IMG/VR virus record: IMGVR_UViG_3300014656_000094
Coordinates: 1 to 30,674 of that record
Length of the DNA stretch: 30,674 nucleotides
Source: a virus
Taxonomy: Duplodnaviria > Caudoviricetes
Direction: 5' to 3' (one strand)
How positions within the stretch are numbered: position 1 is the stretch's first letter; each line of letters starts with the position of its first letter. A program made the position numbers and the translations under genes. Positions 2,812 to 20,649 of this stretch are shown here, piece after piece. Below the pieces are notes generated by a model. The model was not told the DNA's origin. It saw only the letters and a list, made by a program, of their open reading frames with translations, and searched no databases.

Positions 2812-2987
2812 GATTACGAGACGCAGTAATTAAGAAACACGGCCTCGATATAATGATGTATAGATTAGCTGACGGGGATTTTTTAAGAGTAATGGCTATG
2901 CAAAAAAATTGGACGCTCGTAGATTTGCATCATTGGACGGGAATCCGGAATTATGTAACAATTAGAGATAAAGAGAAAAATGGCTGA
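2739..2987 (+). CDS. -1 frameshift extension of the tail chaperone (gpGT-like C-terminal part)
   Basis: Heptamer TTTTTTC at 2739-2745; -1 frame open for 82 codons to TGA at 2985-2987, overlapping the tape measure start. Confidence 0.7.
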   Translation, partial: FFRLESESYSEVERISRFFRLESVGLRDAVIKKHGLDIMMYRLADGDFLRVMAMQKNWTLVDLHHWTGIRNYVTIRDKEKNG

Positions 2988-5502: not shown

Positions 5503-5505
5503 AAT

Positions 5506-6894
5506 ATGGCAGACATCTCTTTTCACTTTCCCTCCTCTACCGGCTCTTACGACATAAATGGGCACGCATTCCGAATGCGTATTTATTATGAAGGGACGCT
5601 GGCAAATACAAACTCCAATGTACACTTAGCAAGCATCGGTAAATTGTCTTATCCATTTGAAGTGAATCCATCCGGTCAAGATTCCCGGCTGTCTTCAATG
5701 AATGTTGTATTTTTCAATGACAATAATTTCTTTGAGGATAACCTTGTTATCCCGAAAATCCATTCCGTTTACTTTGAGTTGAAAATAGACGGTTCCATTA
5801 TTTACGACGGCCGGGTGCAGTGGGAAAACGTTAAAAAGGAAAATTACACAAAGGTCGGCGCGGCCTGGGAATACCAGAAAATAACCATCCCCATCGTGGA
5901 TAAAATAGACGCCCTGCGCTTTTTGGATATGACCGATATCGCCTGGTCTAACGGCGACACGGTTTATGATTTATTAGAGGATATGGCCGGGGCCTGCGGG
6001 CTTACTTTAGAGGTTGACGCCTTTGCTATTGAGGAGGGCAACGGCAACAGTTATACTATTATCCCCGGCGGAGACGACCAGTACCGCCTGCAAACTTTTT
6101 CGGAAACAACCCTTTTAATCGCCCTAAAAAAACTTTGCTTATTATTCGCGGCCCGCGCTTACTCCTACGGTAATAAATTATATTTCGTCCCCCTGGACGG
6201 GCTGGGTACTTTGGCTATTAGTTCGGACGACGTGGTTAAGTACACCGGGGCCATTGACTATAATTCTGTTTCCAGTGTGCGGCTTTTGGCCTCCGTAGAT
6301 CCCTGGACACAAATCAATAAATCGTTTACTGTCACGAAAGGCTACCGCATGGATCTTGCTGCTCAGGATGTGGAAATTGATCTGGAAGGTTATATCGACA
6401 AGGTTTATATTACGGCTCCGGTTACAAATCAATATTACCCGGCGGCTCCGGGCGGGCTTCCTACTTCCCCGACGACAACAATAATCAATTATGCAACGGG
6501 CGGCCTTTTTGTTATTGAATCCGGTATGATTTTGTATACGGACTGGGATGGAGCGGACTACGCTTATGACAGCGTCATCCAGGAAGTTAATTCGGCCACA
6601 CAGCTTGTGTTTTACGCCGACGGCTTTACGCCCCATACGGGTAAGGAATTCACGGTAGACCGCTTTGGGGTTGGCGGGCGGCTGCATAAAATCGATAAAT
6701 TAATGACTTTGATCAGCCAGACTTATCAGGATTATTATTTGCCGTCACTTTTTATCGGGAAAGAGAAATTTGAGATTCACGGCTTTAAAAGTCCGGTGCA
6801 TACTTACACCATATTATCTAATAATTATAATTTATATTCCTTCGAGTTAGACTTCAAGAAATTCCGAACGATTGTAACGGCAAAACGCACTTAG
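5506..6894 (+). CDS. Tail tip/hub-type minor tail protein
   Basis: Beta-rich 462 aa ORF directly after the tape measure gene. Confidence 0.55.
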   Translation: MADISFHFPSSTGSYDINGHAFRMRIYYEGTLANTNSNVHLASIGKLSYPFEVNPSGQDSRLSSMNVVFFNDNNFFEDNLVIPKIHSVYFELKIDGSIIYDGRVQWENVKKENYTKVGAAWEYQKITIPIVDKIDALRFLDMTDIAWSNGDTVYDLLEDMAGACGLTLEVDAFAIEEGNGNSYTIIPGGDDQYRLQTFSETTLLIALKKLCLLFAARAYSYGNKLYFVPLDGLGTLAISSDDVVKYTGAIDYNSVSSVRLLASVDPWTQINKSFTVTKGYRMDLAAQDVEIDLEGYIDKVYITAPVTNQYYPAAPGGLPTSPTTTIINYATGGLFVIESGMILYTDWDGADYAYDSVIQEVNSATQLVFYADGFTPHTGKEFTVDRFGVGGRLHKIDKLMTLISQTYQDYYLPSLFIGKEKFEIHGFKSPVHTYTILSNNYNLYSFELDFKKFRTIVTAKRT

Positions 6895-7114
6895 GACATA
6901 CCTTGTCAACGTCGCCTACAATCCACTTTTGATAATATATCAAATCGCCCTCTGACATTTGCCAAGCAGTTTGGCATTTAGGGCAAAAGTAGACAGTCCT
7001 ATGGCTTTTTACATCTTCTTTTCTTTCCCTTTGTTCTTTACGTGTGAGCGTTTTATTAGGCATTCCGGTTTCTATTCGGACCTTATATTTGTCTCTGGAA
7101 GTAAAAGTACTCAT
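6854..7114 (-). CDS. Small Zn-ribbon protein
   Basis: CPKC...CPKC; start overlaps the stop of the upstream gene. Confidence 0.6.
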   Translation of the reverse strand: MSTFTSRDKYKVRIETGMPNKTLTRKEQRERKEDVKSHRTVYFCPKCQTAWQMSEGDLIYYQKWIVGDVDKVCPKCVLPLQSFGIS

Positions 7115-7482
7115 CAGAATCCTTTCAAAGCCATTTCAAATAATACAGGTTCATCGTTCCAGTTCAATTTAAATTCTTTCCCAGCCACAAAACCGGTAAA
7201 GAAATTGCGGTTTCTCAAATCTTTTATATTATAAATCTGCAATGGGGTAGGTTTGTCTTTCCAGTTTCGTTTAACTTCGAGCCAGATATTAATTGTTTTT
7301 CTTGTACGTTTAATAGCGCACAATATATCAGGCAATCCGGACTCTTGATATTTGCTACCGTGAATTTTAATGAAACGGACGTCATCCTGGAAATTGGCAA
7401 TCAATATTTTTTTTATCAGGGCATTATTGGCGGTTTGATTCATATTAAAATCCTTTCCATATTGTGTTTTAAGCGGTATCAC
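7114..7482 (-). CDS. VRR-NUC family nuclease / putative Holliday junction resolvase
   Basis: KIHGSxYQxSGLPD...WLEVK...PTPLQ, a PD-(D/E)xK motif set. Confidence 0.85.
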   Translation of the reverse strand: MIPLKTQYGKDFNMNQTANNALIKKILIANFQDDVRFIKIHGSKYQESGLPDILCAIKRTRKTINIWLEVKRNWKDKPTPLQIYNIKDLRNRNFFTGFVAGKEFKLNWNDEPVLFEMALKGF

Positions 7483-7715
7483 ATTTCAAGTATAATCAAG
7501 TGTCCGCAATGCGGACAAAAGGTAAATGAATAATAGATCATTTGCATATCGTCTATTTTAATGATTCGTTTACATGTTGTATTGAATTGATGCGTCACGT
7601 GGTCGCGTTTATAGGAGCAGATAAGTTTTTTATAAGATGGCTTAAATGCCCATTTAAGCCGATCTCTTAATTCCATATTATCATAAGAAGTCAGCTCGTC
7701 TTTAAGTTTTTGCAT
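7479..7715 (-). CDS. Hypothetical protein with C-terminal CPHCG
   Basis: AAAGGA RBS; ATGA overlap with the next gene. Confidence 0.6.
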   Translation of the reverse strand: MQKLKDELTSYDNMELRDRLKWAFKPSYKKLICSYKRDHVTHQFNTTCKRIIKIDDMQMIYYSFTFCPHCGHLIILEM

Positions 7716-7741
7716 TATACAGTCCTTTCAGTTAATCTGGT

Positions 7742-7954
7742 TTAATCCTTCAATTTCACATCATAAACAGCCTGTTCTAAGCCGTTTTTACCGTGCTTAA
7801 TTCGCTTTACTGGTAAGCCGTTCCTTTTAGCGAATTGAACCAGCAGGACGGACGTGTGACGGTCTAAATTTGAAGCTATCCCGGTATCAAGAAGTGCATA
7901 TCTTTGCTTTGAGGAAATGCTATCGCGCATCAGGTAGTTTTCCTCCGTAACCAT
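7742..7954 (-). CDS. Hypothetical protein (start may be 7930)
   Basis: GGAGG lies upstream of the ATG at 7930, which is coupled to the preceding stop. Confidence 0.55.
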   Translation of the reverse strand: MVTEENYLMRDSISSKQRYALLDTGIASNLDRHTSVLLVQFAKRNGLPVKRIKHGKNGLEQAVYDVKLKD

Positions 7955-8154
7955 TCCAGTATTTTAGTTTTTGTTATTTCACCGACGCGGCGTTTATTGT
8001 AAACAGACCAGTGCTTTTTATTCGTCCCGGCCTTATGCACAATCCCGAAATAATGTACTACTGTCCAGTGGCCATCGATGCGTTTATAATAAACATATGC
8101 TTCGTCGTAGGGTTGCCGTAATAAAGTTTTTACAAAATCAGCCATAATAAACAA
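7930..8154 (-). CDS. Hypothetical protein
   Basis: Co-oriented ORF filling the gap to the array; start uncertain. Confidence 0.5.
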   Translation of the reverse strand: MFIMADFVKTLLRQPYDEAYVYYKRIDGHWTVVHYFGIVHKAGTNKKHWSVYNKRRVGEITKTKILEWLRRKTT

Positions 8155-8159
8155 TCATT

Positions 8160-8206
8160 TAGGTTTATTTGCAGTGGATTATTAGCGGTTCAATATCATG
8201 TTATAT
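8160..8206 (+). other. Left boundary site of the array (attI-like core or degenerate attC)
   Basis: GTTCAAT-ATCAT-GTTATAT (inverted boxes, 5-bp spacer); TAGGTTTAT 8160-8168 is the reverse complement of ATAAACCTA 15404-15412. Confidence 0.5.
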
Positions 8207-8851
8207 GCCTTCAAACATTGCAATTTGACTTGTCTCACGTTTAAATCTTTTTTTCATTGCATCGTAATATTCTTTGTCAATCTCACAGCCGACAAAATCA
8301 CAGCCAAAGTAATGTGCTGCTATTGCAGAACTTCCCGAACCCAAATGAGTGTCAAGTATTTTTTGACTTGGTTCGGCATAGTTTTTTAATATCCATTTAT
8401 ATAGTGATACAGGCTTTTGAGTTGGGTGAACCCTAAAAAGCGTCTCTTTATCTTGTGATATATGATACCGAAAAATTGAAACCCTTGTATTGAAACTTGT
8501 ATATGCTAACTCACAAGCGGATTGCTTTGAGTTATCATATTTTTTATCCCACACAATAACACATTGTGTCGGTGGCAAAATACCAGTAAAATACTGCATA
8601 CCCCAAATAATCTGATTTTTTGAAATTCTAAACAATTCATTGAAATATTTTTGTCCTGGTCTTGCTCCAAAATTATATCCATTTTTTTTATCCAGTGATA
8701 GCCAATATTTTTTATTACCTTTATTCATCGTCACGTTGACATAAACGTTACCAATCATACCATACGGCGGATCAACAATCGCCAAGTCAAACGCATTGTC
8801 GGGCTGTGTTGCCATATATTTCATACAATCTATGTTTAGTAATTCTATCAT
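8201..8851 (-). CDS. N6-adenine/N4-cytosine DNA methyltransferase (cassette)
   Basis: DPPY, HPTQKP and LDTHLGSGS motifs in beta-class order. Confidence 0.9.
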   Translation of the reverse strand: MIELLNIDCMKYMATQPDNAFDLAIVDPPYGMIGNVYVNVTMNKGNKKYWLSLDKKNGYNFGARPGQKYFNELFRISKNQIIWGMQYFTGILPPTQCVIVWDKKYDNSKQSACELAYTSFNTRVSIFRYHISQDKETLFRVHPTQKPVSLYKWILKNYAEPSQKILDTHLGSGSSAIAAHYFGCDFVGCEIDKEYYDAMKKRFKRETSQIAMFEGI

Positions 8852-8868
8852 AATTCTCCAAACTTGGC

Positions 8869-8926
8869 ATATAACAAAGCAATTAACCTGACGGAAAAAC
8901 GCCGCAGGTTATTGCCAACGTTATGT
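8869..8926 (+). repeat. attC-like site 1 (58 bp)
   Basis: ATATAAC AAAGC AATTAACC TGAC...GCA GGTTATT GCCAAC GTTATGT. Confidence 0.9.
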
Positions 8927-9628
8927 TGCTTCTATTCTTTGTTTGGCCATATCAAACCACTTAGGCTCTTTTTCAACTCCAATAAAATTACGTCCAAGTT
9001 TTTTACAAGCAACGCCAGTAGAGCCACCACCCATAAAAGGATCTAATACAGTGTCGCCAATTTGTGAGCTTGCATCTATTATTTCCTCCATTAACCACAC
9101 AGGTTTATTTGTTGGATGCTTAGATTCTTTTGGCTTAGAAGCGCCTTTCCATAATGGGACTTCATAAAATCTATTGAAGGTTGCCTTTGGTTTTTTAGCA
9201 TAAACGCATAATTCCATACCACTTAACCATAAATGCTGTGCGTTCATCGGGCTTGGATTAGTCTTTTGCCAAGCACATTGCCTTGTTGACCATTTATTAT
9301 CAACAAACGCCTTTCGCCATTGACTAACTTGTTCAATTCCACACCAAACATAAATGCTTCCAATACAAATTCTTGAAAATTCTGAAACAAGATAATCAAT
9401 ATCTATTTTTTCACTATCAGCAACACCTTTGTCTATTTCCCGTAACCCATTTGTAACCCTATTAACCTCGTTGTATGGTGGATCGGTTACAATAAGCTCA
9501 ACTGAATTATCTGGTATTGTCTTTAGTATTTCAACGCAGTCACCACGCAACATAACATAGCGTTCAACCTGACCGCAAACGCGCTCGGTTTCTTGTTGTG
9601 TTGCTGGCATTATCAAAGTATCTTCCAT
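8921..9628 (-). CDS. N6-adenine/N4-cytosine DNA methyltransferase (cassette; starts inside attC 2)
   Basis: DPPY, HPTNKP and LDPFMGGGS motifs; AAAGGA RBS in the attC loop. Confidence 0.9.
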   Translation of the reverse strand: MEDTLIMPATQQETERVCGQVERYVMLRGDCVEILKTIPDNSVELIVTDPPYNEVNRVTNGLREIDKGVADSEKIDIDYLVSEFSRICIGSIYVWCGIEQVSQWRKAFVDNKWSTRQCAWQKTNPSPMNAQHLWLSGMELCVYAKKPKATFNRFYEVPLWKGASKPKESKHPTNKPVWLMEEIIDASSQIGDTVLDPFMGGGSTGVACKKLGRNFIGVEKEPKWFDMAKQRIEAT

Positions 9629-9678
9629 ATACTAAATTTATCCTTTATGTTTGCGGCAGGTTAACTCATCCGTTATGC
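9550..9678 (+). repeat. attC-like site 2 (129 bp)
   Basis: ACATAAC ATAGC GTTCAACC TGACCGCAAAC...GTTTGCGGCA GGTTAAC TCATCC GTTATGC. Confidence 0.9.
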
Positions 9679-9815
9679 TACAAAATCTCATCATCTATTT
9701 TAAGCATATATTTACTAATCTCAGCCCTAATTGTCTTGTTAATCAGGTACAAAAAACCTATACCAGCGTTCATTCCTAAAACAAATATCACAATATATTT
9801 TACAAGTTCTCTCAT
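9678..9815 (-). CDS. 45-aa membrane peptide MRELVKYIVIFVLGMNAGIGFLYLINK... (cassette; not in ORF track)
   Basis: AGAGG RBS; fills the cassette; one hydrophobic helix. Confidence 0.65.
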   Translation of the reverse strand: MRELVKYIVIFVLGMNAGIGFLYLINKTIRAEISKYMLKIDDEIL

Positions 9816-9836
9816 TTTACTACCTCTTTATTTGTA

Positions 9837-9919
9837 CCCTAACCTCGTATTCAACCCGACTCAGCACACGCGCTGTCGTCGGAAAGTCTACGGTTGGCGG
9901 GTTAATACGTTCGTTAAAC
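9837..9919 (+). repeat. attC-like site 3 (83 bp)
   Basis: CCCTAAC CTCGT ATTCAACC CGAC...GCG GGTTAAT ACGTTC GTTAAAC. Confidence 0.9.
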
Positions 9920-10096
9920 GGCTTTTACCATTGATTGTAAATATTCAGTATTGCTTTCAGTATATCCTTTTCTTTCATTTTCCCAAGAATAATGCAATAC
10001 TTGAACTCCACCTATTGGCTGCCAGCCCTCTTTTATCATTTTATTTACATTTTCTATCAAATCGTCTATACTATCATATTCTAAAATATCGTACAT
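9914..10096 (-). CDS. DUF1737-like small protein (cassette)
   Basis: VNKMIKEGWQPIGGV motif; GGAGG RBS. Confidence 0.7.
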   Translation of the reverse strand: MYDILEYDSIDDLIENVNKMIKEGWQPIGGVQVLHYSWENERKGYTESNTEYLQSMVKAV

Positions 10097-10112
10097 CTTT
10101 CCTCCAATCGCC

Positions 10113-10242
10113 GTCTAACATAGCAATCAACCCGACCAAAAACGCCCGTCGGTTGCCGGGCAGGCTCTAATTCGTAGCAGTGCGTTGGTTGGTTAAACCT
10201 ACTGGCCGTTGAGTTTTTGGCGGGTTATCGCAGCCGTTAGTT
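10113..10242 (+). repeat. attC-like site 4 (130 bp)
   Basis: GTCTAAC ATAGC AATCAACC CGACCAAAAAC...GTTTTTGGCG GGTTATC GCAGCC GTTAGTT. Confidence 0.9.
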
Positions 10243-10611
10243 GCTAAATCTGTCTGGTAAATATTTTTTGCATAGTCGGTCGATCATTTCTTCGGAGAAG
10301 TAAATATTTAGCGTGAGCAGTCTTATAATAAGTATCATTTTATCAAGCTCAATCTCGGTCATAGTAATAAGACTATCATTGGATATTATATATTTTCCTA
10401 TTTGGATGCTGCTTGGTTCTCTCCACGTAAGAGCCGCAAGCTCAGTCTGGTTATCCCAGTTATATTTAGCATAATGCAAAGAATCTGATGGCATATATCC
10501 AGACAAAGAATCTGTTGTATGTCCAGCTTGTCCCATTACGGACGCAACTAACAAAATTATGCAGCAGACTAAAAACGCGCTGCGTTGAAGAAATCTTTTT
10601 GTTCTGGTCAT
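10237..10611 (-). CDS. Hypothetical exported protein (cassette; starts inside attC 5)
   Basis: AGGAG RBS; basic N-terminus plus hydrophobic h-region ending VMG/Q. Confidence 0.7.
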   Translation of the reverse strand: MTRTKRFLQRSAFLVCCIILLVASVMGQAGHTTDSLSGYMPSDSLHYAKYNWDNQTELAALTWREPSSIQIGKYIISNDSLITMTEIELDKMILIIRLLTLNIYFSEEMIDRLCKKYLPDRFSN

Positions 10612-10672
10612 AATATTATCTCCTAAAGTTTATGTCCACTTGGTTTTTTGCCGCTGATAATCACCGTTATAC
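10546..10672 (+). repeat. attC-like site 5 (127 bp)
   Basis: AACTAAC AAAAT TATGCAGC...GCTGATA ATCACC GTTATAC. Confidence 0.85.
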
Positions 10673-10852
10673 GGCTTTCGGGTGACAAATAGAATCACAT
10701 CCATGCCAGTCCAGGGTGTCTTTAATTGGCCCACCAATAGATTGAATAAATCCCACAATCATTTTTGCAAGGATGAAGTCTGGCATATCACACTCACTTT
10801 CAATACAATGCTTATTGATTAATACGGTTAACTCTTCCTCGAACTCTTTCAT
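10667..10852 (-). CDS. Hypothetical protein MKEFEEEL... (cassette)
   Basis: GGAGGT RBS before the ATG at 10852; stop in the R' box. Confidence 0.75.
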   Translation of the reverse strand: MKEFEEELTVLINKHCIESECDMPDFILAKMIVGFIQSIGGPIKDTLDWHGCDSICHPKAV

Positions 10853-10866
10853 CTTACCTCCTCGCC

Positions 10867-10963
10867 GTCTAACATTATACTCCAACGGAATTTAAACGCG
10901 GCTTGTTAGTTTAATTGTTTAGTTAATCTCAGCGTTTAAATCCGCTGAGTATGCCAGTTGTAC
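10867..10963 (+). repeat. attC-like site 6 (97 bp)
   Basis: GTCTAAC...CGGAATTTAAACGC...GCGTTTAAATCCG...GTTGTAC; identical to site 8 up to the GTT. Confidence 0.9.
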
Positions 10964-10965
10964 GG

Positions 10966-11175
10966 CTAATTGAAACGTTCAATAATAACTGGGGCATTAA
11001 CTATCTCTACAAAGACAGAGTCCCCTTTCATCACATAAAAAATATTGTGTAGCTCGTTTGGGAATTCAAGGGATTTATCAATTATTTCAGTTACGCCATT
11101 AAAATTGTGATTATAAGCAATATAGGATCCATCTTTACAGAGAACCGTTATGCTTTTGATTGCTGGAAATATCAT
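10966..11175 (-). CDS. Hypothetical protein MIFPAIKS... (cassette)
   Basis: GGAGGTAAGG RBS before the ATG at 11175. Confidence 0.7.
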   Translation of the reverse strand: MIFPAIKSITVLCKDGSYIAYNHNFNGVTEIIDKSLEFPNELHNIFYVMKGDSVFVEIVNAPVIIERFN

Positions 11176-11192
11176 ATCCTTACCTCCGTGCC

Positions 11193-11282
11193 GTCCAACA
11201 ATGTGCTGTAACCGACATTGCACGCGGCCCTTTTTCTATGTTAAGTTAATTAAGCAATGCGGCTAAGCACTGCTCGTTAAAC
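11193..11282 (+). repeat. attC-like site 7 (90 bp)
   Basis: GTCCAAC AATGTGCT...CCGACATTGC...GCAATGCGG...AGCAC...GTTAAAC. Confidence 0.85.
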
Positions 11283-11462
11283 GGCTTCTTTTGTAATAGT
11301 GCATCCCTCAGATATGTAGTGAATTGTTCCATCATCTTCTGCGATAATCCAACTATCACCAGTTGCACAAGGAATATTTTTTACAATACCGTGACAAAGT
11401 GTAAATTGAGCATTGTTAAAATTTACGACTACCCTATCGTCTTCTTTTATAAGTTCTCTCAT
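11277..11462 (-). CDS. Hypothetical small beta protein (cassette)
   Basis: GGGAG RBS; stop in the R' box. Confidence 0.7.
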   Translation of the reverse strand: MRELIKEDDRVVVNFNNAQFTLCHGIVKNIPCATGDSWIIAEDDGTIHYISEGCTITKEAV

Positions 11463-11478
11463 CTTATTCTCCCGTGCC

Positions 11479-11575
11479 GTCTAACATTATACTCCAACGG
11501 AATTTAAACGCGGCTTGTTAGTTTAATTGTTTAGTTAATCTCAGCGTTTAAATCCGCTGAGTATGCCAGTTAAAT
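11479..11575 (+). repeat. attC-like site 8 (97 bp)
   Basis: 11476-11571 identical to 10864-10959. Confidence 0.9.
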
Positions 11576-11935
11576 TTGCCCCATAATATTTAACCAATGT
11601 TCTCTTAATGTTTTCGCTTCCCAATTTATTGTTGCTGCAATCCATCTCCAACTTTTACCTTCAGCCAACATCTTTCCAACGTACCCAAGTTTACCCTGTT
11701 GGATAAGCCCAAAAGAAATAGGCAAATCTAACATCGTATTCAACTCAGACCGCAAACGCGGTCTTTCGCCATTATCGTATTTACTTGGTGACCACTTTGG
11801 GTCATTTTGTTTCGGTAACATATATCCTCCTGTTTGCGGCTGGTTAATACGTTCATTAAACTTCACTTCTGGTATTTCTATATATTCTCCGCATAATACA
11901 CACTGTAATTTATCGCCACATTTTGGACATCTCAT
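11570..11935 (-). CDS. In-frame fusion of two cassette ORFs: Zn-ribbon peptide plus an 83-aa protein with its own start at 11821
   Basis: GAGG RBS at 11935 and AGGAGG RBS at 11821; frame runs through attC 9. Confidence 0.65.
   Translation of the reverse strand: MRCPKCGDKLQCVLCGEYIEIPEVKFNERINQPQTGGYMLPKQNDPKWSPSKYDNGERPRLRSELNTMLDLPISFGLIQQGKLGYVGKMLAEGKSWRWIAATINWEAKTLREHWLNIMGQI
11726..11861 (+). repeat. attC-like site 9 with mutated core (ATTAAAC)
   Basis: Right end GGTTAATACGTTC-ATTAAAC versus GGTTAATACGTTC-GTTAAAC in site 3. Confidence 0.85.
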
Positions 11936-11949
11936 AATTACCTCACTTA

Positions 11950-11983
11950 GTTTAACATAATTATTAAGCTGACTAAAAACGCC
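11950..11983 (+). repeat. attC-like site 10, left half only
   Basis: GTTTAAC ATAAT TATTAAGC TGACTAAAAACGCC with no L'/R' partner. Confidence 0.7.
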
Positions 11984-11996
11984 TACGCACGGCTTT

Positions 11997-12146
11997 TTAT
12001 TTTACTATCTCTTGTTTCTTCTCTTTTTTAACATCGGCATCAACTTCGACATTAAACGCGGGTAGTTTTTCGTGGCACATTTCCCCTGCGTGTTCTGCCA
12101 TATCATCATTCGTTCCAGTATAGCCACAATATTTACATTTGTTCAT
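11997..12146 (-). CDS. 49-aa Cys/His peptide MNKCKYCGYTG... (starts inside attC 11; not in ORF track)
   Basis: AAAGGGA RBS; CxxC...H...C pattern. Confidence 0.65.
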   Translation of the reverse strand: MNKCKYCGYTGTNDDMAEHAGEMCHEKLPAFNVEVDADVKKEKKQEIVK

Positions 12147-12182
12147 TATATCCCTTTCTGCGTTTAATGCCAGGCGTTGTAC
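12026..12182 (+). repeat. attC-like site 11 with L' deleted
   Basis: TTTTAAC ATCGG CATCAACT TCGACATTAAACGC...GCGTTTAATG CCAGGC GTTGTAC. Confidence 0.7.
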
Positions 12183-12184
12183 GG

Positions 12185-12385
12185 CTAAAACGGTTGTTCT
12201 TTTTCTAACTGCTCAATAACACCTTTTAAAAACAGAATAAAATCAGATTTACCCATTATTCTATGAGCAAAACACAATCCATATAAAGTTGGGTTATTGG
12301 GAATGTTTGCCATGTGCCCTGCATAATGGCCAGCGCACTGGTCATAAAAAAATTCTGCCGTTGGTTCGTTTACTTTAATATCCAT
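12185..12385 (-). CDS. Hypothetical protein MDIKVNEP... (cassette)
   Basis: AGGAG RBS before the ATG at 12385. Confidence 0.7.
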   Translation of the reverse strand: MDIKVNEPTAEFFYDQCAGHYAGHMANIPNNPTLYGLCFAHRIMGKSDFILFLKGVIEQLEKEQPF

Positions 12386-12400
12386 AACTTCTCCTACGCC

Positions 12401-12494
12401 GTCCAACATCGTTATGCAGTGGAACAAAAACGCGGACGGCTGTTTTTAAGTTTAAATTACGTGGGTTTTTACCCACTGATAACTACCGTTAGTT
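12401..12494 (+). repeat. attC-like site 12 (94 bp)
   Basis: GTCCAAC ATCGT TATGCAGT GG...CC ACTGATA ACTACC GTTAGTT. Confidence 0.9.
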
Positions 12495-12516
12495 GCGCGC
12501 CAACTAATGTTGTACG

Positions 12517-12810
12517 CTATTTACCAGCCGGATATTTTCTTACTTGACTTGGTGTACCATTCCATCTGGCGTTATCATCAGCAAATGATAAATGAGCAAT
12601 TTCCATAATTTCGTACAGCATTCCATATTTCATCATTTCCCGTTTCTGACTTATCCCTGGATGGCCGTTCATTGGCAAATATCTATTGGCAATAGCAAGT
12701 AACCAAGCTACCTGATCGCAACTTATGGCGCGTTCAACATTGTGTTCAACCGGAATTAAAACGCCTCCCGGTTTTTGTTGTTTGGTTTCTTTTTTTAAGT
12801 TATTTTCCAT
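12517..12810 (-). CDS. Hypothetical protein (cassette; starts inside attC 13)
   Basis: AAAGGA RBS in the attC loop. Confidence 0.7.
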   Translation of the reverse strand: MENNLKKETKQQKPGGVLIPVEHNVERAISCDQVAWLLAIANRYLPMNGHPGISQKREMMKYGMLYEIMEIAHLSFADDNARWNGTPSQVRKYPAGK

Positions 12811-12860
12811 ATCATATTCCTTTCATAAAGGTTTTAATCCCGTTAACACCATCGTTATAC
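12732..12860 (+). repeat. attC-like site 13 (129 bp)
   Basis: GTTCAAC ATTGT GTTCAACC GGAATTAAAAC...GTTTTAATCC CGTTAAC ACCATC GTTATAC. Confidence 0.9.
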
Positions 12861-13406
12861 CGTTTTCATAAATGTTACCCAGTGTGTTTTTTGCGCTTTC
12901 CCAGAAGGATGCCCGAATAATGGTTTCTGGTCCGTAAGTTTAAGTATTTCTTTGAGTGGTATGTCGCTTTCGTTCCATTTAAAAATCAATATCCCATCAT
13001 TCTGCAGCACCCTAAAACATTCAGTAAAGCCTTTACGTAAATCTTCGCGCCAGGTATCTTTGTTTAATCTGCCATAGGATTTTGCCATATAGCTATTTTC
13101 ACCCAAAAAAAGATGAGGCGGGTCAAACACAACAAGTTTAAAAGTCTGGTCCGCAATATCCATATTTCTAAAATCCATAATTTTATCTGGTAAACATTTT
13201 CTAATACGTGCATCTTTGCCTTTGCCGACAACCGTAGGCTGCATAACCCGAAGGTCCGCAAAAAGTACATTTGGGTTATTTTTGTCAAACCAAAATTGTC
13301 TACCACCACAGCAGGCATCCAGCACTGGCGGTATAACATCGTGCTGCATTGGACGCGAAACGCGTCCCTTTGCAGACACTTTTTTCTTTATCTTATCTTT
13401 ACTCAT
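12855..13406 (-). CDS. Class I SAM-dependent (probably DNA) methyltransferase (cassette; starts inside attC 14)
   Basis: LDACCGGRQFWFDK, VFDPPH and ECFRVL motifs of a common phage methyltransferase family. Confidence 0.85.
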   Translation of the reverse strand: MSKDKIKKKVSAKGRVSRPMQHDVIPPVLDACCGGRQFWFDKNNPNVLFADLRVMQPTVVGKGKDARIRKCLPDKIMDFRNMDIADQTFKLVVFDPPHLFLGENSYMAKSYGRLNKDTWREDLRKGFTECFRVLQNDGILIFKWNESDIPLKEILKLTDQKPLFGHPSGKAQKTHWVTFMKTV

Positions 13407-13446
13407 AATTTAGTTCCTTTCGCGCCACTGAGCACCAGCGTTAAAT
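13331..13446 (+). repeat. attC-like site 14 (116 bp)
   Basis: GTATAAC ATCGT GCTGCATT GGACGCGAAA...TTTCGCGCC ACTGAGC ACCAGC GTTAAAT. Confidence 0.9.
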
Positions 13447-13447
13447 G

Positions 13448-13735
13448 CTACCATAGCCTTTTACTTGTTACCTCATCCCATTGTGAATTAAGAAATTCAA
13501 CTAAAGTAGGATTACTAAAATCAAGCAGCCAGGCAATAAGCGTAAAAAATACTAAAAAAAACGATACCACAAGAATTGTCAGAAGCAAACCGTTCCAAAA
13601 TCCTAATTTTTCATCTTTTGGATATTTATACCCACAATGTTTACAAGTCTCAATCTTATTTTTCTCTTTGCCACATTCCGGGCAAGTGTCTGGCCCTGTA
13701 TTTCGGGTCACTGGAATTATAATTGGTGTGTTCAT
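13448..13735 (-). CDS. Zn-ribbon plus TM helix protein (cassette)
   Basis: CPECG...CKHCG followed by a hydrophobic helix; AAAGGGA RBS. Confidence 0.75.
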   Translation of the reverse strand: MNTPIIIPVTRNTGPDTCPECGKEKNKIETCKHCGYKYPKDEKLGFWNGLLLTILVVSFFLVFFTLIAWLLDFSNPTLVEFLNSQWDEVTSKRLW

Positions 13736-13752
13736 TTTTAATCCCTTTCTGC

Positions 13753-13811
13753 ATTTAACATAATTATCAAGCCGACCGGAAACGCCCGGCGGCTTATAAT
13801 GGGCGTTATAA
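13753..13811 (+). repeat. attC-like site 15 (59 bp)
   Basis: ATTTAAC ATAAT TATCAAGC CGACCGG...CCGGCG GCTTATA ATGGGC GTTATAA; textbook 59-base-element layout. Confidence 0.95.
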
Positions 13812-13847
13812 TTATGCGTGTTTTTACCGGATGCGCAGCCCCCGGAG

Positions 13848-13934
13848 TTAGACCGTTAATAAAATACTGTCCTTTATTAATAATACCAGGGTCAATAAGA
13901 TTGTTAAATTGGTTATCAAACATAAACGTATCAT
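13848..13934 (-). CDS. 28-aa hydrophobic peptide MIRLCLITNLTILLTLVLLIKDSILLTV (cassette)
   Basis: Strong AGGGAGGTGAT RBS upstream of the ATG. Confidence 0.55.
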   Translation of the reverse strand: MIRLCLITNLTILLTLVLLIKDSILLTV

Positions 13935-13964
13935 TGCCTTTTATCACCTCCCTTCACACGATAA

Positions 13965-14047
13965 TTATAACCTCGTATTGAACCCGACTCAGCACACGCG
14001 CCGGAATCGGGAATTATTTAGTTGGCGGGTTAATACACCCGTTATAT
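13965..14047 (+). repeat. attC-like site 16 (83 bp; same family as site 3)
   Basis: TAACCTCGTATTnAACCCGACTCAGCACACGCG...GTTGGCGGGTTAATAC shared with site 3. Confidence 0.9.
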
Positions 14048-14301
14048 TACTCAACAATCACCTTAGTATTGGCCCTGTTTGCCAGTAAGTACTCTCCACT
14101 GATAATGCCAGCACTTGCCTTTTCATCCCAATATTCGTCGAACGTGCAAGCCTTTACTATTGCCTGCATTTTACCGGCACCGATAATAGCTCTCTTGTAA
14201 CTCCCGTCTTTAACAATATCCTGTGCAATTTCTAAAGCCATTTGTGCCAAGCCTTCTCTTCCTAATATCCTCCCAAATTTTCTGAGTTCTACTATCTTCA
14301 T
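14047..14301 (-). CDS. Hypothetical protein MKIVELRK... (cassette)
   Basis: GGAGGAG RBS before the ATG at 14301. Confidence 0.7.
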   Translation of the reverse strand: MKIVELRKFGRILGREGLAQMALEIAQDIVKDGSYKRAIIGAGKMQAIVKACTFDEYWDEKASAGIISGEYLLANRANTKVIVE

Positions 14302-14313
14302 AACTCCTCCGTA

Positions 14314-14408
14314 ATATAACATCGTAATGCAGTAGAATTAGCACACGGCCTGTTCCTCTGCGTTGTTTAAATCGTGGCTGGCTAATCCACTGATTACCAG
14401 CGTTAGCG
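14314..14408 (+). repeat. attC-like site 17 (95 bp)
   Basis: ATATAAC ATCGT AATGCAGT AGAATTAGC...GCTAATCC ACTGATT ACCAGC GTTAGCG. Confidence 0.9.
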
Positions 14409-14603
14409 GCTTAAATCCTCGAAAGTATATATATTAATAATTCCTTTTTCTTTTAACATTTTTTCCAATCTCTCAAGCCTCGGCTTCGTTTCGTTTTCAT
14501 ATTCCCATATCATATATGCAAGCCTTTTTTTATAAAGTTTCTTATTATAGCCGCTAACAAATCGTTCAACTCTGACGGCAAACGCCGCCAGTTTCTCAGT
14601 CAT
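14403..14603 (-). CDS. Hypothetical protein MTEKLAAF... (cassette; starts inside attC 18)
   Basis: AAGGGA RBS in the loop; stop in the R' box. Confidence 0.7.
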   Translation of the reverse strand: MTEKLAAFAVRVERFVSGYNKKLYKKRLAYMIWEYENETKPRLERLEKMLKEKGIINIYTFEDLSR

Positions 14604-14645
14604 AATCATTCCCTTCTTGCCGCTGCTTAACACGCGGCGTTAAAC
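14552..14645 (+). repeat. attC-like site 18 (94 bp)
   Basis: CGCTAAC AAATC GTTCAACT CTGACGGCAA...TTGCCG...TTAAC...GTTAAAC. Confidence 0.8.
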
Positions 14646-14942
14646 TTCAGCACGGCTTACATCTTTAATTGGCTTTCCACAATCAGGGCAATATTTACCC
14701 GGTATAGCTATAAAATAGCAATCACAATTAGTTTCATAGCCGTCTTTTTTCCCATAGCCATCCAGTAATTCTGTCCATTCACAAACCGCCGTGCTGTCGT
14801 TCGGTGGGCTAAGCCTATTCTCAAGACCCACACTATACGCTTTCCATATCATCTGGTTAAGTTCTCCGCAGGTTTTAGGAATTTTGCTAATGGATAAATG
14901 TGCCACCTCCAGCAGACCCATTTGTTCTTTTGTTAGTTTCAC
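14640..14942 (-). CDS. Hypothetical protein with C-terminal Zn ribbon (cassette)
   Basis: GAGGT RBS, GTG start; CEW...YETNC...YCPDCGKPI. Confidence 0.75.
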   Translation of the reverse strand: MKLTKEQMGLLEVAHLSISKIPKTCGELNQMIWKAYSVGLENRLSPPNDSTAVCEWTELLDGYGKKDGYETNCDCYFIAIPGKYCPDCGKPIKDVSRAEV

Positions 14943-14956
14943 TTACACCTCACTAA

Positions 14957-15037
14957 GTTTAACATCATATTCAAGCGGACGGTCGCACGCGACTCGCCCG
15001 GTAACTATTAGTTGGCCGCTTAATATCCGCATTAAAC
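14957..15037 (+). repeat. attC-like site 19 with mutated core (ATTAAAC)
   Basis: GTTTAAC ATCAT ATTCAAGC GG...CC GCTTAAT ATCCGC ATTAAAC. Confidence 0.85.
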
Positions 15038-15370
15038 GCTCTTGCGTTTTAAATGACAATATGCACCAATAATCTCGTCAAAAGCTTCTGTGCTTAGTTT
15101 ATAAAAGTAGGTGACAATTTTATTTCTTTCTATTTGAAACCCACCCTGCTTGTATTTTTCTATTTCAGATATTTCATTTATTAATTTTTTTGTACAGATC
15201 ATAATTGTGTCATTTTCTAATTTTATATAAAGTCGTCTATTTTTGAGTTTCACCTCTACGCCGTCAGCATATGATATGCGTTTAACATCGTGCTGCATTG
15301 GACGCAAAACACATCCCTCTGGCACGTTACTTTTTTTAAATGGGTCATTATATGTTTCTAAACCTCTCAT
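15032..15370 (-). CDS. Hypothetical protein (cassette; starts inside attC 20)
   Basis: AAAGGA RBS at the loop/right-arm junction; RPMQHDV shared with the 13406 ORF. Confidence 0.7.
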   Translation of the reverse strand: MRGLETYNDPFKKSNVPEGCVLRPMQHDVKRISYADGVEVKLKNRRLYIKLENDTIMICTKKLINEISEIEKYKQGGFQIERNKIVTYFYKLSTEAFDEIIGAYCHLKRKSV

Positions 15371-15407
15371 AATTTTCCTTTCGCGCCACTGAGCACCAGC
15401 GTTATAA
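15280..15407 (+). repeat. attC-like site 20 (128 bp; same family as site 14)
   Basis: TAACATCGTGCTGCATTGGACGC...TTCCTTTCGCGCCACTGAGCACCAGCGTTA shared with site 14. Confidence 0.9.
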
Positions 15408-15473
15408 ACCTACTTCACTATTTTTAATATTATGGTGTTTACTGCAGCCGACAAATCACGCCTCTTTGTAACC

Positions 15474-16259
15474 TTAAATTTCTAAGTCGCTATCTTCTCC
15501 AGCTATTTCGGCGTCAACTATTTCGGCGTCAATTATTTCGGTTTCTTCGCTTTCTTCTTCGTACACCTGATAGCCTTCTTCGGTCAGCATTTCATACGCA
15601 GACTCAAACATATCTACAAGGCCTGGTTCTGTTAACCCGGCTGGGACGACATCATGAAAACTATAATATTTTTTATCCCCATCCTCAATATATTTAGTTG
15701 TGATTTTATAAGTAAAATACCAGGGACTTTTGCGCTTTGAGGCCATTATATTTGTAAATCGGCGGCCTTCGTCGAATGTAGATACTCCAAAACTTAACAT
15801 CATTGGAGTCATATCTTCAGCATCCGGGCATATTACAGGAATGTTTATATATTGTGAACAGACTGGTCTTATTTTTTTACCGTTTTTTTCAGTCCATTCT
15901 TTTAAAGGGCATTCACTACAATCACCGCCCGGCATGCCTATGCCTATTTTATTATTTTTGGCGATACAATTAATACCTTTTCCTTGTGCTATTGGAATGA
16001 AATTAATACGGGATTTGCCGATAAGTAGTGGTACGATTTTTAGTGGGGTTTTTGGTTCTGCTAATATATTCATCGTCAAATTATTAGCAAGACTTCCGAC
16101 TCTTATTTCGTACGGCGGTGCGGCTTCTTTTGACATACTCTGTACAATTTTAAGACGCGGGACGATTAGAAGCTCAGAGTCAAATCCTTCTAAGCCTTTA
16201 ATTTCAGACGTTTTTTGAAGTGCGCCTGCATTTTTTTTTGCGATTTCTTTACTTGTCAT
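15474..16259 (-). CDS. Putative ssDNA-binding/recombination protein
   Basis: PRLKIVQ motif, CxxC cluster, very acidic C-terminal tail, early-operon context. Confidence 0.5.
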   Translation of the reverse strand: MTSKEIAKKNAGALQKTSEIKGLEGFDSELLIVPRLKIVQSMSKEAAPPYEIRVGSLANNLTMNILAEPKTPLKIVPLLIGKSRINFIPIAQGKGINCIAKNNKIGIGMPGGDCSECPLKEWTEKNGKKIRPVCSQYINIPVICPDAEDMTPMMLSFGVSTFDEGRRFTNIMASKRKSPWYFTYKITTKYIEDGDKKYYSFHDVVPAGLTEPGLVDMFESAYEMLTEEGYQVYEEESEETEIIDAEIVDAEIAGEDSDLEI

Positions 16260-16277
16260 GATTACTACTCCTTTTAA

Positions 16278-17516
16278 TTAGTTCAAATATGCTTTCAAGA
16301 TGTGAATCGCCTCATCTATTTTATCGTCAACTTTCGATACAATTTCTTTTGCCTCCCGTGATTTGGGCTGGGGTAGCTTCAGGGTGTCGAGATCGTTCAT
16401 AAAGGCTTTTAATTGCTCTTTATCACTTGCACCTATAAGCCGTGCTTTTTCAGCTTTAATCGCTTTCTGCTCATCTTCTATTTGTTGCAGTTGTACAAGC
16501 CGTTCCTTCTCGGCTTTTTGCCTTATATCCATTTCGTCACTTATCCGCTTAATTAGATGGTTCCAGGCGTCGTCGGTGTATGTTCGGATTTCTGAAAAGC
16601 TAACATTAAAATCGTCTTTTGTAAAAGACATTGAGTCAGGGCTTATTGACAGCCCAAGAGCATAACAATCTGTTGCTCTTTTATCCTGTTGTTGTCGATA
16701 TTTTTCGTTGACATCATTTGCAGCCGTATACGCTGCAAGAACCGACTTAAATTCCTTGTCATCAATATCGGCTAATTTCTCAGCAAGAATTAAAGCAGTT
16801 TCGCCTATATAAATATGTTCGCCTTTTATCCTTGCCTGAGGCATTTGGCCTAATCTGATATAGGAAATTTTTTCTTTTTTAGCAGCGGCTACAATAGCTT
16901 TCTCAGCGGCTATTAATCGTTTTAAATCTTCCGCCCTGGTTTGCTCTTCTGCTTTAATGCGGGCAGTTTCTTTTTTAGCGTCGGCTTTTTCTTTAGCGAT
17001 ACGCGCGTCGTTAACCTCTTTTGCCGTAGCGATAAATTCGCTAAATTCATCTTCGGTGTAAAGGTCTAACCCGATAAAAAATGGTTCCGGGGCGTTGTAT
17101 TTTGAAAGCATATCGATTCGGTTTCGAATGAGTTTAAGTCGGGCGGTTTCTTTTTTGATTTTTATGAAATCTTCTTGTTGCTGCAGATGGACTTCAAGTG
17201 GTTTCAGGTGCGCTTTGATAACGTTGTAAATACCGTCGATTGCTCTACTCATAAGCAGATAATTTTCTTTAAGATTTATCCGCTTTTTGTCCGCGTCGGT
17301 TCTGATTCTAACAAGTTGAAGCCTTAATTCTCTTGCGGCTTTCATTTGGGTGACTTGCGTTTCGTCAGATACTTTAATGTTCCGGGCCGTTGTCGCCGCC
17401 TTATTCATCTCTTTGAATATGGGGTCGAATACGACCTGAATCTCTGTTTGTTTCTCTTGCGGGACTACCTGTAATTCATTTTCCAGGCTTACGTCTAAAA
17501 CGTGGTCATTTTGCAT
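16278..17516 (-). CDS. Coiled-coil early protein (DUF1351-like)
   Basis: ARELRLQLVRIRT...KKR...LKE pattern, charged helical composition; GGAGG RBS. Confidence 0.5.
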   Translation of the reverse strand: MQNDHVLDVSLENELQVVPQEKQTEIQVVFDPIFKEMNKAATTARNIKVSDETQVTQMKAARELRLQLVRIRTDADKKRINLKENYLLMSRAIDGIYNVIKAHLKPLEVHLQQQEDFIKIKKETARLKLIRNRIDMLSKYNAPEPFFIGLDLYTEDEFSEFIATAKEVNDARIAKEKADAKKETARIKAEEQTRAEDLKRLIAAEKAIVAAAKKEKISYIRLGQMPQARIKGEHIYIGETALILAEKLADIDDKEFKSVLAAYTAANDVNEKYRQQQDKRATDCYALGLSISPDSMSFTKDDFNVSFSEIRTYTDDAWNHLIKRISDEMDIRQKAEKERLVQLQQIEDEQKAIKAEKARLIGASDKEQLKAFMNDLDTLKLPQPKSREAKEIVSKVDDKIDEAIHILKAYLN

Positions 17517-17740
17517 TATGCCTCCAAGTATGGTTTTTTGTCAGGGTTTTTTTTAATCCAATCTAACACTATTGACGCAATAACTTCCGTAGACCTCAAA
17601 TAATCAGACGAGTCATTAAGTGTTAGCATTGCATTTATATTCATTAGTTTTTCAAAAAGTTCTGGATTTAGATAAGCTGAACTGGCAAATAGTATATCTT
17701 CTGGACAGGTCATTCTTGCCGCAATGGTTAAAAAGTTCAT
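17516..17740 (-). CDS. Hypothetical protein MNFLTIAA...
   Basis: GAGGGT RBS before the ATG at 17740; avoids the long overlap of the ORF-track start. Confidence 0.55.
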   Translation of the reverse strand: MNFLTIAARMTCPEDILFASSAYLNPELFEKLMNINAMLTLNDSSDYLRSTEVIASIVLDWIKKNPDKKPYLEA

Positions 17741-17741
17741 T

Positions 17742-17990
17742 TTACACCCTCGGTTTAAATTCTGTAAAATTTCCGATAGTTTCAATGCAATCATGTATAA
17801 TTTCCTGTAAGGCCGTGAATTCATCGTAGGTTATTTTTTTGCAATCCTCGGCGTGCTCTAATATTTTGCCCGTGGCGTCGTTAAAAGCGTCGATAACGCA
17901 TACAATAGAGCTGCAAACTTCAATGGCCTGGGCCCCGGTTCCAAGTGTAATTTGAGGCTTGTCCAAAATATTTTCGCATACTGAACACAT
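17742..17990 (-). CDS. Hypothetical Cys-containing protein MCSVCEN...
   Basis: GAGGAG RBS; ATG coupled to the upstream stop. Confidence 0.55.
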   Translation of the reverse strand: MCSVCENILDKPQITLGTGAQAIEVCSSIVCVIDAFNDATGKILEHAEDCKKITYDEFTALQEIIHDCIETIGNFTEFKPRV

Positions 17991-18433
17991 TATTTTCTCC
18001 TCAGTGTATTTATTTTGGTATAAATCCATGTACTGACTCCGGTCGGGATAATATTTTCAAGTTCTAACATTTCTTTAACCGGGGCCTGATTCACCTTACT
18101 TTGAATAAATTCAAAACGTGAATTTTCATAACACCACCTTATAAATGCTTCTTTGTCGTCGACTCCGGCTTTGAGGTCTGCTTTTTTCGTGACAGTGGTT
18201 AGCTCGCCGGTAATTTTTTCAACGTCAATCGCTTCCATCTTTTTAATGAGCAGAAATTCAATATCTGATTTCGCTTTGTTCATTGCTTTTTCAAGTTTGC
18301 CGATTCCGGTTTTAGCGTCCTTAGTGCGCTGTAGAAAGTCGGCAAGGTGTCCGAGAGTCATATCGGAAGAAGAAAACCCGCCTATTTCCTGCAGATCTTT
18401 AATTATGCCGATTTCTTTTGTTAGTGCATCCAT
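17990..18433 (-). CDS. Siphovirus early protein (Gp157/Gam-like architecture)
   Basis: N-terminal coiled coil plus beta/alpha C-terminus; located in the recombination cluster. Confidence 0.45.
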   Translation of the reverse strand: MDALTKEIGIIKDLQEIGGFSSSDMTLGHLADFLQRTKDAKTGIGKLEKAMNKAKSDIEFLLIKKMEAIDVEKITGELTTVTKKADLKAGVDDKEAFIRWCYENSRFEFIQSKVNQAPVKEMLELENIIPTGVSTWIYTKINTLRRK

Positions 18434-18444
18434 TTTCTAATATC

Positions 18445-18762
18445 CTATAATTTATATATTAATATTGCTTTTTTAAGGTCTATTCTGTTATAGCCTTTAG
18501 CGTCTTCAAAAGCATACAATTTAGCGTTTTCAATCAGGCCGTTATTATTGATTGAGCGGACAAAATTGTTCCATTCGATTCGGCGGGATTTGGTTATTTC
18601 AAGAGTCCATTCAGCTTTAAAAATTGCTAATAAATTCCTGCGGTTTTCAACAATCCTATCTTCACTTGCAAGTTCTTCCGTATAAGGATTATACCCTTCG
18701 CCGCCTTCGTTCATTACCGTTGTGTATTCTTTTTCTGCTTTTTTTAATTCTGTAATTGTCAT
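18445..18762 (-). CDS. Hypothetical protein, first gene after the early promoter
   Basis: AAAGGAG RBS. Confidence 0.7.
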   Translation of the reverse strand: MTITELKKAEKEYTTVMNEGGEGYNPYTEELASEDRIVENRRNLLAIFKAEWTLEITKSRRIEWNNFVRSINNNGLIENAKLYAFEDAKGYNRIDLKKAILIYKL

Positions 18763-18794
18763 CTCTAATCTCCTTTGGTTGCGCGTTCATTTCC

Positions 18795-18823
18795 AATATA
18801 AGAAAGGTTTTAAAGAAAGTCAA
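18795..18823 (-). promoter_or_regulatory. Sigma70-type leftward promoter
   Basis: TTGACT - 17 bp - TATATT on the minus strand with AT-rich upstream sequence. Confidence 0.75.
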
Positions 18824-18851
18824 GTGTTTTTATAAATAAATTATATAATGT

Positions 18852-20363: not shown

Positions 20364-20480
20364 ACTATTTCCCTCCGCTTGGTTTAATATAACACATTAT
20401 AATATTAATGCAATATTAATTTGTAATTAATACAATTAATTTATATATTGAATTACATTTATAACAAAGGAGCAAATCAA
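20364..20480. promoter_or_regulatory. AT-rich divergent control region
   Basis: Between divergent genes; AATATTAAT direct repeat and near-palindrome TTGTAATTAATACAA. Confidence 0.5.
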
Positions 20481-20627
20481 ATGACTGAAACAATGATGAT
20501 CCCGGTTTCAAAAGAAATCCACGAGGCTGCTAAAAAACGAGCGGCTGAACTTGGAATGACTCTGCAAGACTTCACCGAAGTGCAACTACAGCGAGCGCTT
20601 AATAAAGGCAAGAAAACCACCTCTTAG
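20481..20627 (+). CDS. 48-aa ribbon-helix-helix (Arc/CopG-like) regulator; not in ORF track
   Basis: MTETMMIPVSKEIHEAAKKRAAELGMTLQDFTEVQLQRAL; AAAGGAG RBS. Confidence 0.75.
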   Translation: MTETMMIPVSKEIHEAAKKRAAELGMTLQDFTEVQLQRALNKGKKTTS

Positions 20628-20649
20628 CGGTTACATATAATGAAGGGAG

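Follow-up and report, generated by a model that had tools for sequence, protein, structure and literature searches.

We analysed a linear viral record of 30,674 bp (IMGVR_UViG_3300014656_000094; the whole of it is hereafter called the window), which occurs in groundwater metagenomes and is 41% complete according to CheckV, and found an array of integron-type cassettes within its leftward early module, with 19 genes on the attC sites' bottom strand. An integron integrase (IntI) acting in trans, most likely that of the host, probably excises and inserts the cassettes at G^TT. Integrons have been treated as bacterial devices, in which the choice of strand is seen as placing genes under the Pc promoter, and IntI cuts at the GTT of the attC core. 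An initial annotation, made from the sequence alone, had proposed a platform of about 20 attC-like sites and accessory genes, shuffled in trans. The attC-like sites were confirmed and the integron-type array is real, with 18 intact sites recovered by the covariance model and two further, damaged ones. The platform reading was supported in part: the sites are attC by structure, the cassettes are bounded by G^TT and movement by a recombinase in trans is the preferred explanation, but the cassettes are non-canonical, with all genes reversed. This reversal, which is the distinguishing feature of the array, was absent from the initial annotation.

The 18 intact sites, 58–136 bp in length, extend from 8869 to 15407, all with the top strand on the + strand. 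A strict structural scan returned 13 sites, every one on the + strand and inside 8869–15407. With wobble pairs allowed, 16 matches were obtained in 8200–15407 and none in the remaining 23.5 kb, against a chance level of 0.22 matches on average, and 2 at most, over 60 dinucleotide shuffles; one of the structural-scan matches, 10983–11165, was unsupported by the covariance model. The covariance model, which we built ourselves from 54 attC sites of bacterial genomes, detected 18 + strand sites (E-values from 7.6e-10 to 0.042) and nothing outside the array, and its single weak match on the − strand overlaps a palindromic site. The covariance match is partly circular, because the bacterial training sites were gathered with a pattern derived from the window. 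The strand call is not circular, since the model recovers the published sites of the phages TJE1 and H101 on the strand published as top. Rfam gave no match to the window, attC 8869 was unmatched among GenBank phages, and an over-specific attC pattern gave zero matches. The proposed layout, R''–5 nt–L'' (8 nt)...L' (7 nt)–6 nt–GTT, was in register in 16/18 sites, with sites 11193 and 14552 off by one base, and the example once given as site 15 lies at 13753–13811 as written. That the sites share structure rather than sequence was borne out by a mean column identity of 46% across 17 sites, but not by sites 10867 and 11479, which are identical over 96 bp (10864–10959 and 11476–11571).

The sites also carry the unpaired bases expected of attC. 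An extra base was found at position 4 of L'' in 15/18 sites and at position 3 in one further site, the second unpaired base, in the extension, is mostly T on the bottom strand, and a G follows AAC at R' in 16/18 sites; such extrahelical-base features are given for attC in the accessible part of PMC2727003. With the R and L boxes paired, the bottom-strand fold had a computed probability of 0.03–0.75 in 16/18 sites and of 0.01 in one, the last being mis-registered by the constraint. Of the 16 comparable sites, 13 had a higher probability for the bottom strand than for the top strand; the constraint did not suit the other two sites, which were omitted. The unconstrained minimum-energy folds of the longer sites often adopt other shapes.

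Each unit of the array reads TTRRRY, reversed gene, attC. The core to the left of a gene is complementary to the R'' to its right at 6.37 of 9 variable positions on average (19 pairs), compared with 3.63/9 after permutation, and 0/100,000 permutations reached the real value. The L stem pairs within its own site (11–16/16, depending on position), while core bases 6–9 pair with the next site (14–15/15, versus 4–11/18 with their own site). The switch of pairing from the own site to the next site falls between L' and the bases after GTT, that is, at the IntI cut, and, judged by base pairing, it is the mark of cassettes recombined at G^TT. The 96-bp identity of sites 10867 and 11479 likewise ends at G^TT. 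As in mobile cassettes, the units are bounded by G^TT, their cores are complementary in the circular form, and junctions are seen in homologous cassettes.

At the left end of the array, 8188–8206 (+) holds an L-like box (GTTCAAT), a 5-nt spacer and a core G^TTATAT (G at 8200), without a hairpin partner. This core can pair with R'' of attC 1 at 10/12 nt, and the segment was unmatched by the attC covariance model. A similar box–5 nt–GTT build was found at the 5' ends of most other inspected arrays and beside bacterial intI genes. We regard 8188–8206 as an attI-like site with a putative attI function, an assignment by likeness only, because attI sites show little consensus. Promoter-like matches were at chance level (61 versus 52.5 ± 8); with the genes reversed, a Pc promoter at the attI side would read them antisense.

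All 19 open reading frames (ORFs) lie on the − strand, which is the attC bottom strand, an orientation opposite to that in bacterial cassettes, and a codon-model classifier called 14/14 window cassettes reverse. None of the 19 has the canonical arrangement, in which the gene lies on the top strand and ends before its own attC. The stop codons of 11/19 ORFs are the complement of the core TTA, and in 8/19 the ribosome-binding site and start lie within the own attC. Because the stops coincide with the core and the starts lie inside the own attC, the unit is a gene with the site to its right, and this definition is consistent with the strand that the extrahelical bases indicate. A top-strand inversion of canonical cassettes was ruled out, since the bottom-strand sites themselves incorporate the starts and stops. 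As annotated initially, the cargo is phage-like and includes three methyltransferases; the DUF1737 and zinc-ribbon matches fell below the Pfam cut-offs. Among the ORFs, PADLOC models matched only the methyltransferases and, marginally, one Cas12a stretch. In many close homologs of the methyltransferase at 12855–13406, the first ~25 residues are absent or replaced by other extensions. ORFs 11570–11935 and 13738–13947 read through an attC site, so that their C-terminus or fusion depends on the neighbouring cassette.

The polarity of cassettes was compared in 103 viral loci and at least 153 genome loci (one scan supplied 146 of these, 80 of them with complete flanks), and was scored by the codon model on intervals of 90–1500 bp between same-strand sites. 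Viral cassettes were 87 reverse, 9 forward and 2 ambiguous, and cellular cassettes, among the matches listed, were 83 forward, 11 reverse and 18 ambiguous. By contig, 34 viral arrays were reverse and three forward (n=37), and 30 cellular arrays were forward, none reverse and two tied (n=32, among the matches listed); this count omits three cellular loci with ambiguous calls only, and takes the near-identical L094 and L103 apart. The three viral exceptions with forward cassettes comprise two short contigs and one provirus with intI. Metagenome loci of mixed origin with window-like sites gave 47 forward, 14 reverse and 13 ambiguous calls, and no whole cassette was common to these loci and the window. 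A first orientation classifier, based on the longest ORF over one point (65 forward, 37 reverse and 34 ambiguous calls for viral arrays), was dropped because it called only 8/16 window sites reverse.

Integrons had been described as rare in phages, to which a caveat applies: in addition to the 37 viral contigs with scorable cassettes, 17 clusters of attC sites lacking an integron integrase (CALINs) were reported among 10,705 phage genomes (Qi, Rajabal, Ghaly, Tetu, Gillings 2023, PMC9892861). In that study, IntI1 recombined 5/6 tested phage sites, the bottom strand over the top strand, including attC1 and attC2 of phage H101. We found the attC top strands of H101 on the + strand and all its annotated genes on the − strand; because these genes lie opposite the attC top strands, two of the sites recombined by IntI1 stem from a reversed array. 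The array of MW202573, a phage of the same set and the best GenBank phage match (74%) of the 12855–13406 methyltransferase, is also reversed on re-checking. In P12002L, the bottom strand of attC1 is the coding strand. Positions 29100–32800 of this Polaribacter phage (L432) contain several TAAC...GTT hairpin-like spacers between − strand genes beyond the two reported sites, of a type undetected by the covariance model.

Rearrangements at cores were observed among relatives of single cassettes. Fourteen viral loci contain a homolog of the 12855–13406 methyltransferase, which has the cassette form in L339–L342 (76% identical). The methyltransferase cassette has different neighbours in L340 and L342. 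These two loci have two cassettes in common, 99–100% identical, which adjoin each other in one locus but are separated by 1.5 kb in the other, and the junctions fall at the core. A segment of 1,225 bp present in L340, bounded by cores at both ends, is absent from L341. Further cassettes common to unrelated viral loci likewise end at cores. The sites of L339–L342 are of another type, undetected by the covariance model, which finds sites in 4/14 of the methyltransferase-homolog loci, all on the strand opposite the gene. In the runs of the window, other contigs match from 8919 onward, at the end of cassette 2, but have another attC arm in front of it. In viral locus L001, 2717–3260 is a two-cassette reversed array with an attI-like end, located in a packaging module (HNH, portal); its sites resemble 8869 (91%) and 11193 (77%) of the window.

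We found no tyrosine recombinase in the 41%-complete contig, in line with the initial annotation, and recombination at the window sites would be by IntI in trans. The window holds a cluster of attC sites without a nearby intI, as in CALINs, in an incomplete genome, and lacks the intI adjoining attI of a complete integron. A tyrosine recombinase was detected in 6/41 viral records searched. Fourteen records are at least 90% complete, namely the forward provirus and 13 records with reversed cassettes; ten of these 13 are without a tyrosine recombinase, two encode phage integrases of the ordinary kind and L082 alone encodes IntI. The IntI proteins of L082 and of a partial record, L097, score 347 and 388 bits (TIGR02249 cut-off 265) and are encoded 24 and 44 nt from the first core. 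Because their intI genes share the strand of the reversed cassette genes, the intI–attI–attC geometry in L082 and L097 is canonical and only the genes are reversed. IntI is also encoded by G042 and G250, genomes that contain either window-like sites or a related head module.

In L082 (G022, 43.5 kb, 100% complete), the region 2898–9739 contains at least seven reversed cassettes and an IntI gene that directly follows the attI-like site, and its ORFs include a PAPS-reductase-like gene and a Lar-like restriction-alleviation gene. L097 (G041) is a temperate phage in which reversed cassettes, IntI, an excisionase and an ordinary phage integrase form one gene run at 4457–7778.

Several observations weigh against recombination in trans of a generally reversed phage array. 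Reversal is not universal, because the array of the virulent phage TJE1, which carries a 46% homolog of cassette 1, is forward. The comparison sets were gathered with patterns derived from the window sites. P12002L attC1 is the sole tested site without IntI1 recombinants (PMC9892861). Two cores of the window (11855, 15031) have ATT in place of GTT, and two sites are broken: 11950 retains the left arm only, and 12026–12182 (157 bp) is missing its L' box. One difference between L340 and L339/L341 (196–511) does not end at a core, and no joints at the core are listed in five DNA assemblies compared with the array as contigs only. Finally, as the contig is 41% complete, a phage-encoded IntI is possible.

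This last point, together with the IntI genes beside the reversed cassettes of L082 and L097, favours an IntI encoded in the unsequenced part of the genome or recently lost, which would make the array a complete phage integron and not one served in trans. We consider this unlikely: intI lies within 24–44 nt of the first core in both loci, whereas the 1.3 kb beyond the attI-like site of the window contains no IntI or IntI remnant, and only 1/13 of the reversed-cassette records at least 90% complete encodes one. The broken sites, the ATT cores, the off-core difference and the lack of core joints would fit an ancient product of IntI that has since become frozen or is in decay, with current changes due to homologous recombination between similar sites or to hairpin slippage, as would a 21-nt mini unit, the single identical pair of 96-bp sites and an array sequence that is identical in four DNA runs. 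Such decay is, however, rather improbable, given that 16/18 sites keep the pairing of R and L at a computed probability of at least 0.03, that core complementarity across each gene is nearly intact, and that cassettes 99–100% identical have been rearranged at cores in L340–L342. Movement by a non-IntI recombinase, for instance a simpler Xer-like enzyme, agrees with the P12002L result but is very improbable, because the window sites bear the extrahelical bases that direct the strand choice of IntI (according to the accessible part of PMC2727003) and the recombinases adjoining reversed arrays are IntI by TIGR02249. Capture of a piece of a bacterial chromosomal integron as one block, although captured Vibrio integron pieces have been published (PMC9892861), the sites match a model built from bacterial attC and site 10113 is 72–75% like sites in other contigs, is hardly plausible for an array with heterogeneous sites and cargo that matches phage families, when cellular arrays, among the matches listed, were forward in 30/32 contigs and reversed in none.

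In the preferred reading, with IntI acting in trans, IntI would bind the folded bottom strand, which is here the coding strand. Circles would be excised by attC × attC recombination and inserted at the attI-like site 8188–8206 or at other attC sites. The genes would be read not from an integron Pc promoter but from the phage early transcript entering from the 15407 side, and the reversed build would arise because genes must be read from a transcript that enters opposite attI. A host cassette of canonical build would be inserted in antisense orientation and so remain silent. Anti-phage cassettes occur in host integrons, according to the accessible parts of two reports (10.1101/2024.07.02.601719; 10.1101/2024.07.02.601686), and such cassettes would enter the window array antisense. 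Excision is more frequent when the bottom strand is on the lagging-strand template, as stated in the available portion of PMC5371416; replication co-directional with transcription would place the bottom strands of the array on that template, and excision would be favoured.

More tentatively, it is conceivable, though short of probable, that phages of several bacterial phyla run their own pool of reversed-polarity cassettes, composed of anti-restriction methyltransferases and small unknown proteins, on host IntI and express it from the early transcript. Captured host cassettes, many of them anti-phage, would then be silent in the phage, and phage cassettes silent in host integrons, while the few phages that carry IntI could serve the rest. 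If true, this phage-side reversed version would turn IntI into a counter-defence tool and could explain mechanistically some of the mosaicism seen in phage early regions. The origin of cassettes would also be concerned, as one methyltransferase family includes an ordinary gene outside cassettes, a forward cassette (TJE1) and reversed cassettes whose starts lie inside attC, and the 16 small unknown ORFs would be candidates for a counter-defence screen.

The individual units are given below from left to right, with ORFs on the − strand and attC sites on the + strand; unless stated otherwise, attC sites were detected by the covariance model. Cassette 1 encodes an N6/N4 DNA methyltransferase of 216 aa (8201–8851), whose stop is the complement of the core TTA, followed by attC 1 (8869–8926, 58 bp, 52.2 bits). 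Cassette 2 encodes a second N6/N4 DNA methyltransferase (235 aa, 8921–9628), with its start inside attC 2 (9550–9678, 129 bp, 55.2 bits), the bottom strand of which provides the ribosome-binding site and start. Cassette 3 encodes a hydrophobic protein of 45 aa without a family (9678–9815), beside attC 3 (9837–9919, 83 bp), which is 82% like attC 13965. Cassette 4 (60 aa, 9914–10096) has the weak DUF1737/phrog_2036 match and is followed by attC 4 (10113–10242, 130 bp), which shows 72% likeness to a site from a genome that belongs to the same phylum as G043 (Calditrichaceae label). The ORF of cassette 5 (124 aa, 10237–10611) starts inside attC 5 (10546–10672, 127 bp). Cassette 6 encodes a phrog_30199 protein (61 aa, 10667–10852), and its attC 6 (10867–10963, 97 bp) is identical up to G^TT to attC 8 (11479–11575, 97 bp). 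Between them lie the ORF of cassette 7 (69 aa, 10966–11175), attC 7 (11193–11282, 90 bp; the site 77% like that of L001) and the ORF of cassette 8 (61 aa, 11277–11462).

The ORF of cassette 9 (11570–11935) yields 83 aa from the start at 11821 inside attC 9 (11726–11861, 136 bp, core ATT), or a read-through form of 121 aa from an in-frame start at 11935 in the next, damaged cassette. There, the damaged attC 11950–12000 (+) has R'' and L'' but no right arm, and a Cys/His-rich ORF of 49 aa (11997–12146) starts inside the damaged attC 12026–12182 (+), in which the inner stem and core are present; both were unmatched by the covariance model. An ORF of 66 aa (12185–12385) precedes attC 10 (12401–12494, 94 bp), the weakest site at 18.5 bits, and the mini unit, which is palindromic and ORF-less, lies between two GTT cores (12489–12509, +). 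Further to the right, an ORF of 97 aa (12517–12810) starts inside attC 11 (12732–12860, 129 bp), and the phrog_954 methyltransferase (183 aa, 12855–13406) has its first ~25 residues encoded by attC 12 (13331–13446, 116 bp), which is 77% like attC 18. An ORF of 95 aa with CxxC pairs and a hydrophobic stretch (13448–13735) precedes attC 13 (13753–13811, 59 bp), through which the next ORF reads (69 aa, 13738–13947), its stop 2 nt short of the next start; attC 14 follows (13965–14047, 83 bp). The last four units are a phrog_33658 ORF (84 aa, 14047–14301) with attC 15 (14314–14408, 95 bp), an ORF of 66 aa (14403–14603) starting inside attC 16 (14552–14645, 94 bp, arms one base out of register), an ORF of 100 aa with the weak zinc-ribbon match (14640–14942) with attC 17 (14957–15037, 81 bp, core ATT), and an ORF of 112 aa (15032–15370) starting inside attC 18 (15280–15407, 128 bp), the last site of the array. 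RNA run X5 covered only 13953–14476 within 6500–22500, at 99%+ identity, a segment that spans the phrog_33658 cassette and its flanks; this coverage is a weak hint, because contigs reveal neither strand nor level.

The genome is divided into a rightward structural module (terminase, capsid, tape measure) and the leftward early module, from ~20363 to 6854, in which the array is nested. The upstream portion of the early module (15474–20363, −) encodes Pam3 gp34-like and gp33-like proteins and a phrog_62 helicase on the strand of the cassette ORFs, and the downstream portion beyond the attI-like site (6854–8154, −) contains small ORFs and a VRR-NUC-like nuclease. A 56-bp direct repeat with copies 242 bp apart, together with shorter TACAT-rich repeats, follows a DnaB-N/AAA_25 gene at 22156–22496 and is a candidate origin; the 246-nt piece between the copies had about half the depth of its flanks in run X1. 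Two neighbouring ORFs of the tail region (704–1548) have a 42-nt stretch in common at 98% identity (999–1040 and 1436–1477) and are probable tandem paralogs.

Searches of viral contigs with single early proteins found no close relatives of the window phage, one of them returning only the window's own protein, and among 33 records with related capsids (8 at least 90% complete), one had a single attC-type site and none an array. The closest head-module relative in named genomes is the phage-like contig G250:C64, from a genome labelled Ca. Neomarinimicrobiota (head module 34–64% identical), which has a different early module and no array. Hints as to the host point toward FCB-type bacteria without being decisive, and spacer-like matches were absent from 167 genomes of one candidate phylum.

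Compared with bacterial integron cassettes, the window array has the same R''–L''–L'–R' build, extrahelical bases, site length (58–136 bp), G^TT crossover and complementary cores across the gene. It differs in that the gene is on the bottom strand and that attC precedes the gene in the reading direction and often holds its start; moreover, unlike bacterial integrons, it is without intI or an evident Pc promoter and is seated in a phage early module. The phage CALINs (PMC9892861) are alike in being attC clusters without intI in phage genomes with methyltransferase cargo, but they have 2–4 sites each, in the accessible portion of Table S1, compared with the 18 intact sites of the window, and the accessible text is silent on reversed genes, starts inside attC and an attI-like end in virulent phages. 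The complete phage integrons of L082 and L097 resemble the window array in their reversed cassettes, starts inside attC and an attI-like site where the early module has its distal end; both encode IntI right after this site on the strand of the cassette genes, where the window has none. No description of reversed phage cassettes was found in the mainly open-access literature, including the accessible parts of the reviews PMC8618304 and PMC8946536. Clusters of attC sites in phages have already been published, and the reversed build appears, with good support at the sequence level, to be a new element.

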